A stretch of 64,000 nucleotides of DNA. It comes from Candidatus Aenigmatarchaeota archaeon. GTDB taxonomy: Archaea; Aenigmatarchaeota; Aenigmatarchaeia; PWEA01; JACQIF01. The DNA lies in assembly GCA_016432325.1 (NCBI GenBank), contig CP066684.1, positions 448,001 to 512,000 on the forward strand, given 5' to 3'. Below are positions 3,791 through 15,796 of the stretch, piece by piece; the stretch's first letter is position 1; each line of letters begins with the position of its first letter. The notes beneath the pieces were generated by a model. That model made no database searches. It was given only the letters and a program-made list of their open reading frames with translations, and had not been told where the DNA came from. Made by a program: the position numbers and the translations under genes.

Positions 3791-4807
3791 ATGGTCAAAC
3801 GTTCACAGAGGCCGAAAACCGTGAAAGTCAAGGAGAAGGCGAATCAGATGGTTGGCCGCGCCAAGACTGCCTCGAAAGTGATGCACGGCAAGTTCAAGTG
3901 CCCGGACTGCGGCTCTTCTCACATGCTCGAAGACTCAAGCCGCGGCGAGGTTTCTTGCGGCAACTGCGGACTGATTCTCGAAGAGAACATAATCGATCTC
4001 ACCCAGGAATGGCGCGCGTTCGACCAGGAGCAGCGCTCCAAGCGCGCGCGCACGGGCGCCCCGCTGACGCACACGAAGCACGACAAAGGCATGATAACCG
4101 AGATAGGCCGAGGCTCTGGAGAGCTTTTCAAGGTCTCCGCACGCAAACGCGCGCAATATTACAGGCTCCGCAAGTGGCAGAAGCGTCTCATCGAAAGCAA
4201 AGACCGCAACCTGTCGTTCGCTCTCTCAGAACTGCAGCGTCTCGTTTCGTTCCTCGGACTGCCGAAGAACGTCCACGAGGAAGTTGCAAAACAGTACGAG
4301 AAGGCCGTTGACAAGGGGCTCGTGCGCGGCCGCTCGATGGAGAGCGTCGTCGCGGCTCTCCTATACGCGATATGCCGCGAGTACAAGACGCCCCGAACGC
4401 TGGACGAAATCACGGATGCTTCTGGCGTGGACAAGCGCGAGATCGGGCGCACGTACCGTTATGTGTGCAGAGAGCTTGAGATACGCATACTTCCCTCGCA
4501 GCCCGAAGACTACATACCGCGCTTCGCCACGATGCTCGGCTTGTCTGACAAGGTGCAGGCCGGCGCGATGGAAGTTCTCAGGAAGGCGAAGAAATACGAT
4601 CTCGCCTCTGGTAAGGGTCCGACCGGCGTGGCCGCGGCCGCTTTGTACATCGCCGCCGTGCTCGCAGACGAGAAGCGCACGCAACGCGAGGTCGCCGACG
4701 TCGTCGGCGTCACAGAAGTCACGATACGCAACCGCTACAAGGAGATAGTGGACAAGCTCGGCATCGAAGAGGAGGTCGAGAAAAAAATCAAAGAGGATGA
4801 AGATTGA
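3791..4807 (+). CDS. tfb: Transcription initiation factor IIB
   Basis: Zn ribbon CPDC...CGNC, EWRAF B-reader, two cyclin folds, VTEVTIRNRYKE. Confidence 0.98.
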   Translation: MVKRSQRPKTVKVKEKANQMVGRAKTASKVMHGKFKCPDCGSSHMLEDSSRGEVSCGNCGLILEENIIDLTQEWRAFDQEQRSKRARTGAPLTHTKHDKGMITEIGRGSGELFKVSARKRAQYYRLRKWQKRLIESKDRNLSFALSELQRLVSFLGLPKNVHEEVAKQYEKAVDKGLVRGRSMESVVAALLYAICREYKTPRTLDEITDASGVDKREIGRTYRYVCRELEIRILPSQPEDYIPRFATMLGLSDKVQAGAMEVLRKAKKYDLASGKGPTGVAAAALYIAAVLADEKRTQREVADVVGVTEVTIRNRYKEIVDKLGIEEEVEKKIKEDED

Positions 4808-4858
4808 TTTTTTTCACATTTTCCGCCATGCGTAAAATCGAGAAGAAGATTAAGGAAG

Positions 4859-5083
4859 ATGAAGATTAGGAAGGAGTTTCCATCCGTGGGGATAAACATG
4901 ACTGGACATGTCTTTAATCTGGACGAGGAAGTGAAAATCGCCAAGAAGGTCGGACTTGGAGAACTAGAAGGTATGATTCAATCGATGATAAATGACAATA
5001 CAGTCGAAGCGGCATGGGACCTATACAGGGCGCGCAGTATCGCTTTCCAAGAACTTTCTGGCAAGGCTTACGTTCCTCAGTGA
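4859..5083 (+). CDS. Small hypothetical protein
   Basis: 74-aa ORF filling the intergenic space. Confidence 0.5.
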   Translation: MKIRKEFPSVGINMTGHVFNLDEEVKIAKKVGLGELEGMIQSMINDNTVEAAWDLYRARSIAFQELSGKAYVPQ

Positions 5084-12244: not shown

Positions 12245-12886
12245 TCAGGCCTCCAGGTCGTCTATCTGGCGCTGAATATCGCGGACGAGCCGTTCCTGTT
12301 CGTCCAGCTGTCTTTCGAGGCTCCTCTTCCTTCTCGGATCAGTCGCCGCGTCATAGTCCCGACGCACTTCCACCGTCTTTTTCTGCTCTCTCTCCAGCCT
12401 CTTCTTCAGCTTCTCTACGTCCTTGCTCCTGTCCCTCTCCTCTTCCTGGTCCTCATGGCGCGACTTCAGCTTCTCCCCGAATTTCTGGCCGAGCTTGAAG
12501 CGGGCGCCGACATCGGCCGGATGCCAAATCCTCGTAAGGAAGAAGTACCCGAGACCGAAGGCTATCGTAGCCCACAGCCAGACGATGAGCCAGGACGCAA
12601 GGATTCCGTACCATCCCGAATAGACGAGCATGATGTAGACGGCCAGGCCGAAGAGCGTGCCCAGCGCCTTGTTCTCCTGGAATGTATGCATCCCCCGGCT
12701 TATGATATAGATGTAGATTAGCAGCACTATGTGCGGCACGAAGAACGCGAAGAGCAGGTCGTGCTGCGGGACGCCTGTTATGCAGCCGTACGTGTTCGTT
12801 CCGACACAGTCCGGTACCTTCAGCACTTGACGGAGAAGGATGTCTGCGATGTCGTTGCTTCCTGTTCCGAGGTTGTGGAAAGACAT
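12245..12886 (-). CDS. Membrane protein (3-4 TM) with a C-terminal coiled coil
   Basis: Hydrophobic helices followed by a charged heptad tail. Abuts the next gene. Confidence 0.85.
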   Translation of the reverse strand: MSFHNLGTGSNDIADILLRQVLKVPDCVGTNTYGCITGVPQHDLLFAFFVPHIVLLIYIYIISRGMHTFQENKALGTLFGLAVYIMLVYSGWYGILASWLIVWLWATIAFGLGYFFLTRIWHPADVGARFKLGQKFGEKLKSRHEDQEEERDRSKDVEKLKKRLEREQKKTVEVRRDYDAATDPRRKRSLERQLDEQERLVRDIQRQIDDLEA

Positions 12887-12929
12887 TGGACCACTTTTAA
12901 GACTGTTTTAATTGAAAAGAACAGAATAT

Positions 12930-12973
12930 AAAAAGATAAAGGGAGGGAACCGGGTTTAAAAAACGGTTCTCCT
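12930..12973 (-). terminator. Hairpin plus T-rich tract after the small-gene operon
   Basis: gaaccg/cggttc stem followed on the minus strand by tttatctttt. Confidence 0.4.
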
Positions 12974-13318
12974 CTAGGCGGGCGGCGGACGCAGAGCCGC
13001 AGGCCACCTTACGTGATAGTTGTCCACTACCGTGTTTGTGGCCGCGTTTCTTTCAAGTCCATCGTACACGAGTTGCGCATCCGGCAGTCGCTGAGCCAGC
13101 TGCTCCTCGAATCTCCTGCCGCTGTTGCCGGGATTGCGACTCGCCCATTCCCGAACAGCCGTTCTCTTCTCTTCTGGAGTCTGCACTCTTTGCAGAGCCT
13201 CCACGTAGAAAGGCTCGCGATTCTCTCTCGGCTGATCCGGAGGCAAATCTATCAAGTCCGTTTCCGCGTCAAACCGGCGCTCTGTGCGCGCTCTCCAATA
13301 CTGCAATACAGTTGTCAT
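12974..13318 (-). CDS. Hypothetical protein, 114 aa
   Basis: Starts 2 nt after the stop of 13321..13569, behind a GGAGG RBS. Confidence 0.7.
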   Translation of the reverse strand: MTTVLQYWRARTERRFDAETDLIDLPPDQPRENREPFYVEALQRVQTPEEKRTAVREWASRNPGNSGRRFEEQLAQRLPDAQLVYDGLERNAATNTVVDNYHVRWPAALRPPPA

Positions 13319-13320
13319 AT

Positions 13321-13569
13321 CTAGTGCTCCTCCTCTCCTTCGATCACGGAATCGCCTCGTGTTCCTCTGCTTCCGTAGCTGACTGTCCTGTGTCTGAAGG
13401 CATCGAATGCCCTGTTCGAATCCAACATCTCGCCAAGCCTTCTTCCTTCCTCAAGTCTTGCGCGGTCTGTTTGGTTTCTCGCTTGCCATGTCTGATAGGC
13501 AGTATAACCGAGCGCCAATACGCCTATTGTTATGGCGCCTCCGGCTACCGCACTTTCTACGTCTACCAT
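13321..13569 (-). CDS. Small membrane-anchored protein with a C-terminal FDAFRHRTVSYGSRGTRG motif
   Basis: N-terminal TM helix, GGGGTG RBS, motif shared with the upstream gene. Confidence 0.8.
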   Translation of the reverse strand: MVDVESAVAGGAITIGVLALGYTAYQTWQARNQTDRARLEEGRRLGEMLDSNRAFDAFRHRTVSYGSRGTRGDSVIEGEEEH

Positions 13570-13605
13570 TTTATTACACCCCCTCGAGTCTCCTCAAGAT
13601 CATGA

Positions 13606-14133
13606 CTAGTTCGTGCTCGGTCCGCGCACGCCGCGGCTCCCGTAGCTCACGTGCCTGTGCCTGTATGCGTCGAATTGCGTCGCGTACTCGGCGAATTCCG
13701 CCGCGAGAGTTTGGTACTGCTTCTCCATCGCGGCGAATCTCTTGTTCATCTTGTCAACATCCGGCGAGTCCTTGCCCATCGGCTTGCCCTCGGCGGCGAA
13801 TATGCCCGCGAGTTCCGCAACGCCCGGCACCAACGCGATTGTGTTGAAGAAGTTCGTGTTCAGGGACTGGCCTATGGCGAATTCGACAGGCATCCTCCCC
13901 TTGTCGATGAACTGCATCTGATTCCATGAGGTCGGTATCGCATCGTTCCTCTGTAGAATATCCAGGTACGGGTTGTCCTCTTCGGCTGGTTTAAGCTTCT
14001 GCATGACGGTCCTGTAATTGCTCAGTTCTGTTTTCATCGACTCTACAATCTTTCCCAGATGACCAATCTGCCTGCTGTTATCTGCCCCAAGCTGTATCAT
14101 CACTTCTATCGGATCCTGCTGTACATGCACCAT
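13606..14133 (-). CDS. Hypothetical protein with a hydrophobic segment, coiled coil and C-terminal FDAYRHRHVSYGSRGVRG motif
   Basis: GGGGTGA RBS and the shared motif. Confidence 0.8.
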   Translation of the reverse strand: MVHVQQDPIEVMIQLGADNSRQIGHLGKIVESMKTELSNYRTVMQKLKPAEEDNPYLDILQRNDAIPTSWNQMQFIDKGRMPVEFAIGQSLNTNFFNTIALVPGVAELAGIFAAEGKPMGKDSPDVDKMNKRFAAMEKQYQTLAAEFAEYATQFDAYRHRHVSYGSRGVRGPSTN

Positions 14134-14252
14134 ATCACTTCACCCCTGCAATGCGTCTGGCGGCCTTTGTGAGGCCGCGCAGCGCCTTTGAAACCGTCCT
14201 TGCGAATTTTATTGCAACCATTTGCCACACCACTGTCACTTTATAGTAGCTA

Positions 14253-14657
14253 CTAGTATATATAGCTTATTTCGTCCTCGGAAACGCTTTTAACGGGCTT
14301 ATCGGAGCGTATTGAGCCTGTTCCTACGTTTAAGGCGCCCACGGGGTCGGTCTTGCCACTATACGCCAAGGCCCCATAACACGCCAGATCTATGACTTCC
14401 TTGGCCTCCGGAAGGCCGTATCCGGACATGTCGCGCCTGTGGAGCTGCGTGGTGAACATTACAGTCTTCAGAATGTTGTCGCCTGTAACGGCTTTGTTTG
14501 AAAGGTCCTTGAGGCCGTTGACAACCGCAGTCACATCGTTCTGGCTCCTGTGAACGTTAGTCGCCACCATGATCGCGACAGGCGAAAAGAGCCCTTCCTT
14601 GCAGGGGCGCGACCCGCGCAATTCCCTTACCATCTGTTCCACAGGATCTATGGCCAT
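14253..14657 (-). CDS. Hypothetical protein, 134 aa
   Basis: Only long ORF in the interval. Confidence 0.65.
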   Translation of the reverse strand: MAIDPVEQMVRELRGSRPCKEGLFSPVAIMVATNVHRSQNDVTAVVNGLKDLSNKAVTGDNILKTVMFTTQLHRRDMSGYGLPEAKEVIDLACYGALAYSGKTDPVGALNVGTGSIRSDKPVKSVSEDEISYIY

Positions 14658-14722: not shown

Positions 14723-15796
14723 TCACCCGTAAACAATCTTCTGCGCTATCTTCCGCGCCGCAGGCAGCCTCCTGTGGTGGCGCGCGAAGAACTTCTTCAT
14801 CAGTTCGATTGTTACGGCCTTTAGCTCGCCTGTAAGGAGCTTCCCGGACGCGTACGACTCGCGCACGCGCTCGACCTTACTGTCCGAAGGCTCGAAATAC
14901 TTCAGGAGCTGGAACGCAACGTCGACGTCCGGATTGCCCCCGTGCTTCCTGTGTTCGTCGACCGTATCACGTCCTCCTGAAAAGGCGTATTTCTTTATCT
15001 TCTGCTCCACGACCTCCGGAGTGTCGTCCAGATAGATTGCCGAGTTGGGGTCAGAAGAGGACATCTTCGAACTGGGCCCGCCGAGGGCCGGCACGTGTTT
15101 TACGTAAAGAGACGCGGGAGGCACGAAACCGTACGGAAGCCTCGCCGCAACGTCGCGCGTCGCGCGGATGTGCGGGTCCTGGTCCAGAGCCACAGGAACG
15201 ATGCCTATTCGCGGCCCGTCGAGCTGAGGATATAGTATGTCAGCGAGTTGCAAAAAGACCGCGGCCATTTTTCCGGGGTTCAAGTGACCATAAATGGCAC
15301 GGAACGCATTTTCCGTGAACTTCTTGCTTATCTCGAACGCCAGCTCGTAATAGCGCGCGGGCATGCGCGACTGCACGTAGACGCATTTCTTCGGCACGCC
15401 AAGGGCAAGCACGTGCGCGGCGTTTTCCAGCGCGTAACGCTTAGCCTCTTCCATCGTTTGTATGCGCTCGCGCGACACGTACGCGTCTATGTCCGCGACG
15501 GCAAAATACGTATCAGCGCCCTGCTTCTGGAAGAAACGGACGAAGTCGATTATGCTCATGTGGCCTATGTGCATGCGCCCTGAGGAGGCGATGCCTGTCA
15601 TGCAGTACGTGCGTTTTCGCGTACGCAGCGCGTTCACAAATGCGTCAAAATCCCTGTGGGCCACTGCGATTCCGCGGCGGAAGTAGACGTGGTCCAGACG
15701 CTCGCGCGCGGACAGCGTCTTGATGCCGAACTCTGCGAAGAGATGTTCGTAGTCGCTCACGGCGTCGTTGCTCCACGGGTCCAGACGTTCTGCCAT
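14723..15796 (-). CDS. trpS: Tryptophanyl-tRNA synthetase
   Basis: MHIGH, DQDPH, KMSSS, AFSGGR motifs. Confidence 0.97.
   Translation of the reverse strand: MAERLDPWSNDAVSDYEHLFAEFGIKTLSARERLDHVYFRRGIAVAHRDFDAFVNALRTRKRTYCMTGIASSGRMHIGHMSIIDFVRFFQKQGADTYFAVADIDAYVSRERIQTMEEAKRYALENAAHVLALGVPKKCVYVQSRMPARYYELAFEISKKFTENAFRAIYGHLNPGKMAAVFLQLADILYPQLDGPRIGIVPVALDQDPHIRATRDVAARLPYGFVPPASLYVKHVPALGGPSSKMSSSDPNSAIYLDDTPEVVEQKIKKYAFSGGRDTVDEHRKHGGNPDVDVAFQLLKYFEPSDSKVERVRESYASGKLLTGELKAVTIELMKKFFARHHRRLPAARKIAQKIVYG

Follow-up and report, generated by a model that had tools for sequence, protein, structure and literature searches.

Two adjacent small proteins of an Aenigmarchaeota archaeon carry, close to their C termini, nearly the same 18-residue peptide, FDAxRHRxVSYGSRGxRG. 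This motif is a real, selected and private peptide, borne on two C-terminal modules that are partly paralogous. The source organism belongs to the DPANN archaea and comes from groundwater; its genome is a single contig of 874,869 bases with 56% G+C. The window, meaning the whole stretch of DNA that was analysed, is 64,000 nucleotides long. The two proteins, p175 and p82, are the products of minus-strand ORFs that share a reading frame (Table 1). They agree at 15 of the 18 motif residues and at 37 of the 54 underlying bases, which confirms the common motif reported in a preliminary description of this DNA (13354-13407 against 13621-13674).

Selection on the shared peptide

Codons differ synonymously at nine of the 15 identical residues. 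The earlier description had drawn attention to such differences, correctly, with the example AGC-CGC-GGC against AGC-AGA-GGA. The proportion of differences between the copies was 0.84 at synonymous sites and 0.16 at non-synonymous sites. When 17 random base changes were applied to either copy, mean identity was 7.6 of 18 residues, and an identity of 15 was reached in none of 100,000 runs (P<1e-5). The proposal that selection acts on the peptide is thus borne out by 15 of 18 residues kept against 37 of 54 bases.

Identical codons were used at six of the 15 residues, where 5.2 are expected from independent draws from the codon usage of the genome (P=0.42). Codon identity at the independent-draw level, combined with kept residues, indicates that the likeness is held at the level of the peptide and not of the DNA or RNA. 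A recent duplication can be set aside, since the synonymous sites are randomised. A weaker signal in the codons suggests that the two copies arose by common descent and not by convergence; both use the minority codon class (AGR for Arg, AGY for Ser) at four of the six six-fold sites (P ~3e-4, in a post hoc test).

The edges of the motif are sharp, with identity of 1/14 residues upstream and 1/4 downstream. Neither a regular expression nor a profile of three tails found a third copy in the 874,869-base genome. We also scanned the whole genome for short local peptide duplicates. The motif pair was conspicuous there as a lone match linking two separate ORFs, almost all other pairs being internal repeats or members of paralogue families.

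Gene order and transcription unit

The minus-strand order, 5' to 3', is TrpRS, p134, p175, p82, p114 and then the membrane proteins p213, p173 and p164. Neighbours of the locus are housekeeping genes: TrpRS, an L10e-like ribosomal protein gene and Trm1.

Table 1. Features of the p175-p82-p114 locus, with positions in the window.
Feature	Position	Strand	Remarks
TrpRS gene	14723-15796	minus	
p134	14253-14657	minus	between TrpRS and p175
Putative archaeal promoter	14203..14250	minus	5' of p175; TATA-like boxes CTATAAAG and AATAAAAT, inferred by sequence reading
Leader hairpin	14163..14181	minus	operon 5' leader; perfect 7-bp hairpin, GCGGCCT-CACAA-AGGCCGC, 5-nt loop CACAA
p175	13606..14133	minus	175 aa
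p175 C-terminal module	13609..13761	minus	helix and motif, ~50 aa; alignment A4
Motif copy 1	13621..13674	minus	FDAYRHRHVSYGSRGVRG; p175 residues 154-171, 4 residues from stop
p175-p82 spacer	13570..13605	minus	36 nt; Shine-Dalgarno-like GAGGGGGTG for p82 and two extra in-frame stops
p82	13321..13569	minus	82 aa
p82 C-terminal module	13324..13470	minus	helix, motif and acidic end; alignment A4
Motif copy 2	13354..13407	minus	FDAFRHRTVSYGSRGTRG; p82 residues 55-72, 10 residues from stop
p114	12974..13318	minus	114 aa; third operon gene
Terminator-like hairpin	12915..12969	minus	3' of p114; GAACCG, 11-nt loop, CGGTTC, then a T-rich run; by eye
p213	12245-12886	minus	membrane protein

On the sequence evidence, p175, p82 and p114 probably form one transcription unit, separate from the membrane module that follows. 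The earlier reading of a three-gene operon with ribosome-binding sites is supported, the genes being co-oriented and closely spaced, with a Shine-Dalgarno-like site readable before each: GGGGTGA for p175, GAGGGGGTG for p82 and GGAGAGGAGGAG for p114. The last of these is embedded in the final codons of p82. An operon terminator had also been proposed, and that claim stands in part: a hairpin with a T-run can be read 3' of p114, but it went uncalled, like the rest of the region, in a simple scan for consensus terminators. The end of the operon overlaps the TATA-like box of the following unit, that of p213. In the 5' leader, the exact form of the hairpin occurs once in the genome, and Rfam gave no match either for it or elsewhere in the region.

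A read-through fusion of p175 to p82 was considered and is ruled out. With the two extra stops of the spacer, three in-frame stops follow p175 in all, so that such a fusion is impossible.

Two further observations concern the sequences around the motif genes. The p134 protein matched nothing in Pfam or PHROGs. In the sister genome described below its position is occupied by an unrelated 90-aa ORF, with no p134 counterpart there, and p134 could be an insertion specific to this lineage. The acidic end of p82, ...EGEEEH (13321-13345, minus), is coded by the purine-rich GGAGAGGAGGAG; because these codons double as the Shine-Dalgarno-like site of p114, the acidic end may be set by translation signals and not by protein function.

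Properties of the three proteins

p175 consists of a long N-terminal helix, the sequence IPTSWN, a hydrophobic Pro/Gly segment (residues 95-113) followed by Lys-rich sequence, a C-terminal helix and the motif. p82 begins with a hydrophobic helix (~7-25) followed by Arg-rich sequence, and continues with a basic/acidic helix, the motif and the acidic end. The order of hydrophobic segment, helix and motif given in the preliminary description is therefore valid for both, with hydropathy at the borderline: the maximum Kyte-Doolittle value over a 19-residue window is 1.6 in p175 and in p82 alike, borderline for a membrane helix. An N-terminal signal peptide was found in neither. Both tails are hydrophilic, ending in ...SRGVRGPSTN (p175) and ...SRGTRGDSVIEGEEEH (p82). 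The third protein, p114, is soluble and restricted to the genus.

Scans of all three proteins against Pfam, NCBIfam and PHROGs returned nothing significant. A sequence search of the PDB gave no match, and the ESM Atlas gave no lead, its model having a pLDDT of 0.40. An AlphaFold monomer of p175 was all-helical at a pLDDT of 44, too low for fold comparison; the motif region was its least confident part (pLDDT 31-35). The p114 monomer, at pLDDT 55, was likewise too poor for fold comparison, and its best Foldseek hit in the PDB had an E of 5.

A C-terminal module common to two species

The only congener in our genome set is a groundwater MAG, here G001 (records MBI4017552.1, protein, and JACQIF010000030.1, contig). 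It retains the gene order, with TrpRS, a 236-aa orthologue of p175 (p236), a small gene split by a contig gap, and orthologues of p114, p213 and p173. Identity between orthologues is 31% for p175, 49% for p114 and 53% for p213. Identical residues of source and G001 orthologues are coded by identical codons in 41-53% of cases, which is near synonymous saturation.

The G001 assembly breaks within the small gene (L002:1-230 and L005:1440-1650, on contigs C78 and C47), and the ends of these two contigs have no overlap and could not be joined. The small protein of G001 is seemingly longer than p82 (at least 140 aa) and is without its N-terminal hydrophobic helix.

We compared the C termini by local alignment with shuffling controls. 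p82 matched the C terminus of the G001 small protein with z=14.9, and the p175 tail matched the same protein with z=6.8; within G001, the tails of p236 and of the small protein matched over 36 ungapped residues with z=3.4. All four C termini could be placed in register (alignment A4), with a helix D...M...G...GE, a tail [FY]DA[FY]R...G[ST] and four invariant columns. From this register we take the common unit to be a module of ~45 residues that both species carry on the long as well as on the small protein. The two proteins had been described as otherwise dissimilar. By simple identity they are; the four-way alignment nevertheless reveals a weakly conserved helix before the motif.

The two parts of the module differ in their relationships. 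In the helix part, the orthologous small proteins are the closest pair, at ~10/19 identical residues, as expected if the duplication predates the species. In the tail part, identity is 15/18 between the paralogues of the source genome against ~4/18 for each orthologue pair. In the small protein of G001 the tail is YDAYRNKHLDHGTGTKTS; the long protein p236 has at best a degenerate version of the tail, with a 40-residue extension. This discordance of helix and tail is the pattern expected from a short conversion tract or copy. At two variable positions p175 shares its residue (Tyr4, His8) with the small protein of G001, and p82 differs, which suggests that any copy ran from the small gene to the long gene. 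The order of events is judged here from two species and one distant homologue, P0003, which comes without genomic context.

Distribution of the proteins and of the motif

A word-indexed search of 5.8 billion proteins matched p175 and p82 to themselves alone, with nothing among longer proteins. A profile search of 1.84 billion representatives with p175 returned itself, P0002 of G001 (E 4e-138) and P0003 (E 6e-6), plus P0004 as a marginal extra match, a repeat protein with IPTSWN. P0003 is a 263-aa protein from a Logan assembly, with the same MVH start, IPTSWN and hydrophobic Pro/Gly segment as p175. Members of the p175 family (p175, P0002 and P0003) have an N-terminal helix beginning MVH..., IPTSWN, and a hydrophobic Pro/Gly segment with G-K-x-x-P after it. 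The 18-residue motif does not belong to these family features, being absent from P0002 and P0003.

Two incidental likenesses were noted. P0003 ends in ...LDYRHKTE, whose likeness to the beginning of the tail motif extends over 6-7 residues and was noticed post hoc. IPTSWN, invariant in the p175 family, occurs three times as IPT[ST]WNAFQK in P0004, an unrelated metagenomic protein of 167 aa.

Profiles of the p175 family and of the C-terminal module, run on 371 genomes of the class, matched only the source genome and G001. In a genome of the same order, G005, a weakly tail-like sequence, ...GEFEAYIPRTMEFGNRT..., lies inside a 555-aa ORF (C8:11501-11629); its E of 5.7e-4 per genome is insignificant after 371 genomes. 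A back-translation of the 14-residue core DAxRHRxVSYGSRG matched nothing in 185,579 GTDB species genomes, in IMG/VR or among JGI metagenome contigs. Searches over billions of protein sequences yielded no further motif-bearing protein. Database and genome searches found no relatives of p82 or p114 outside the genus. Searches for the locus were equally restricted: one based on p114 found nothing among metagenome contigs, and one based on the p175 family (A3) found the G001 contig alone among genome contigs. Identical p175, p82 and p114 are carried by 4-5 other assemblies.

The preliminary description had called for the motif to be sought across the genome and related proteomes. The two known copies were recovered and none elsewhere, and the closest homologues are without it. 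For these homologues, then, the picture is largely one of an unconserved motif and no confident oligomer models, which the preliminary description had named as grounds against its own reading.

Relation to the downstream membrane module

It had been suggested that the operon serves the membrane module just downstream. This link is weak. The p213 family is present in 28 of 41 related genomes, while p175, p82 and p114 occur only within the genus, and a hairpin with T-run and a TATA-like box lie between the two units. Elsewhere p213 is preceded by unrelated lineage-specific proteins, mostly helical or acidic. We compared the genes upstream of p213 in 27 other genomes with the p175 family by BLAST, shuffled Smith-Waterman and hhalign, and found no significant similarity; the best score was z 6.2, for P0003 against one protein of genome G012, and hhalign gave a probability of 3% for the p175-family profile A3 against that protein. 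No pair of proteins with a shared tail was found at the p213 loci of these 27 genomes. Since p213 is widespread with other genes upstream, the adjacency of operon and membrane module is conserved within the genus only.

Origin and function of the common tail

The motif has the traits of a short linear motif, with 15/18 identity inside against 1/14 and 1/4 in the flanks, and a place in the low-confidence part of the p175 model (pLDDT 31-35). A targeting, docking or assembly signal appears to be the most reasonable class of function. The account to which we tentatively incline is that a copy limited to the tail, followed by selection, gave p175 and p82 a common cytoplasmic docking peptide for one partner.

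Such a history would begin with an old partial duplication, which would have placed a module of ~45 residues (an amphipathic helix and a basic Gly/Arg-rich tail) on a long and a small protein. In the source lineage, a tract of ~54 nt would then have passed, by gene conversion or copy, from the end of the small gene to the end of the long gene. Later purifying selection would have kept the tails alike while synonymous sites randomised. Given the randomised synonymous sites between the copies, any conversion would be old, with the likeness kept since then by selection on the peptide. The locus resembles known cases of concerted evolution by short-tract conversion in the higher identity of paralogues (15/18) than of orthologues (~4/18), in sharp bounds and in adjacent co-oriented genes. 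It differs in that recent gene conversion yields identical DNA, whereas here the synonymous sites are randomised.

Both proteins would be membrane-associated, with their C-terminal modules in the cytoplasm near the membrane; this may be read from the hydrophobic segments, borderline in each, and the positive charges that come after them. The exposed tail, alike in the two, would serve as a short docking peptide by which both proteins reach one site on one partner. The first candidate for this partner, by inference only, would be the co-transcribed soluble p114, and the second a pairing of tail with tail. Partner and code would be private to the lineage, which would account for the strongly different tail in the sister species. 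That the motif is unconserved in the only sister genome also makes a long-standing essential interaction doubtful.

Docking tails are known from the C-terminal peptide of FtsZ (bound by FtsA, ZipA and SepF), the HbYX tails of proteasomal ATPases and the MIM of ESCRT-III paralogues. HbYX and MIM tails bring several different proteins to one binding site. The motif here is likewise a short conserved exposed peptide near the C terminus, after a helix or linker. Unlike those tails, with which it has no sequence similarity, it stops 4 and 10 residues short of the extreme C terminus, and it is private to one genome instead of being conserved across phyla.

A different history is possible, though we hold it distinctly doubtful: the duplication would be older than the species split, with differential constraint and no conversion, and both tails would have decayed in the G001 lineage. 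In the source lineage, on this view, a structural reason would have kept both tails, for example helix capping or tail pairing in a p175-p82 hetero-oligomer. Detection of the module in all four proteins agrees with an old duplication, and so does synonymous saturation, which is the same between the copies as between the species, so that the copies may match the split in age. The end of P0003 resembles the first half of the motif, but this likeness covers only 6-7 residues and was seen post hoc. Against this history, decay would require ~14/18 changes in each of two G001 proteins and 0/15 constrained changes in the two proteins here. It also leaves unexplained that the helix tracks the species tree while the tail does not.

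Quite unlikely, in our judgement, is that the motif is a recognition signal for an enzyme, such as a degron, a C-terminal processing site or a site of Arg/Ser modification. The motif would suit such a role, being a short and exposed C-terminal peptide under strong constraint, with much Arg, Gly and Ser; its position 4-10 residues from the ends would suit it too, the residues beyond the motif not being conserved. However, no protease, methyltransferase or ligase was found in the operon or co-restricted to the genus, there would be only two substrates in the proteome, and the known types do not fit a tail without terminal Gly-Gly and without a hydrophobic anchor.

Two specific C-terminal signals were considered and rejected. 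In PGF-CTERM/archaeosortase sorting, one C-terminal tag is likewise carried by different side-by-side proteins. Unlike PGF-CTERM and PEP-CTERM, the motif here is hydrophilic and basic, and has neither a following membrane helix nor an accompanying signal peptide; a sorting signal of this kind is out. A ubiquitin-like or SAMP-type C terminus is out as well, there being no terminal GG and the predictions being helical, not beta-grasp.

We regard as very unlikely that the tail came with a mobile gene-end replacement cassette ('twin tail'), in which a recoded spare tail would have been inserted and the displaced end would now finish p82. The layout is similar, with a tail and stop, a spacer and a new ORF with a second tail, recoded in the same frame, and our duplicate scan found a duplicated tfb end in this genome too. 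Against this, neither a hairpin or inverted repeat nor a nuclease was found between the copies, and in G001, too, the long and the small gene are separate. In addition, the p82 stretch that precedes the motif has its orthologue in the small protein of G001 and forms part of the duplicated module, and the copies lie 267 nt apart, against ~62 nt in the tfb case. The cassette reading is thus largely refuted.

The likeness to the metal-binding apex of a trimeric spike or fibre (gpV type), proposed in the preliminary description, is unsupported and to our mind extremely improbable. p175 does have His-x-His and then Gly-rich residues after a helical region, but the likeness to P2 gpV and phi92 gp138 amounts to His-x-His in one copy: the residues are H-R-H in p175, H-R-T in p82 and N-K-H in G001, and the 'GP' of p175 is 'GD' in p82. 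With neither HxH nor GP conserved between the copies, the reading fails. Spike apexes follow beta-helices, not alpha-helices, and the p175 model is all-helical (at the low pLDDT of 44). Nor is there phage homology or a viral context; PHROGs and Pfam gave no phage family, IMG/VR gave no motif match, and the neighbours are housekeeping genes.

Other duplicated gene ends and implications

Two other duplicated ends were seen in this genome. Outside the window, at genome positions 269192-271279 (plus strand), two secreted proteins encoded side by side, one of ~580 aa and the other of 98 aa, each have a signal peptide and end in a common C-terminal membrane anchor, reading ...LVLLALIFAIAAGVMYWKWD... 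in one and ...LVILALVISIAAGLLYWKWD... in the other, with 14/20 residues identical and 77% base identity. Their ...YWKWD anchor looks like a common sorting or anchor signal, and the pair like a second case here of neighbours sharing a tail. In the window, at 4778-4865 (genome 452778-452865), the duplicate scan found the end of tfb duplicated, with EKKIKEDED occurring twice, 62 nt apart.

A more far-reaching reading of the p175-p82 motif, which we consider unlikely, is that the tail is a lineage-private 'address code', copied onto the end of a neighbour within a DPANN symbiont's genus-specific and fast-evolving operon, so that one site would accept two distinct membrane-associated proteins; the code would be rewritten between sister species and co-evolve with its partner. 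If this were true, then together with the other duplicated gene ends found here, gene-end copying would be a recurrent route by which protein interactions are rewired in this genome.

The findings do not amount to a system of a new kind, and they show no novelty at the system level. The locus is a clean small example of a peptide held alike by selection while the free bases changed. A synthetic 18-mer would offer a handle for finding the partner of three proteins that, save for a distant homologue of p175, have no known kin outside the genus, in a lineage where almost every gene of this sort is opaque. Such a partner, if found, would for the first time assign a function to a genus-specific operon that lies beside a widely conserved, uncharacterised DPANN membrane module.
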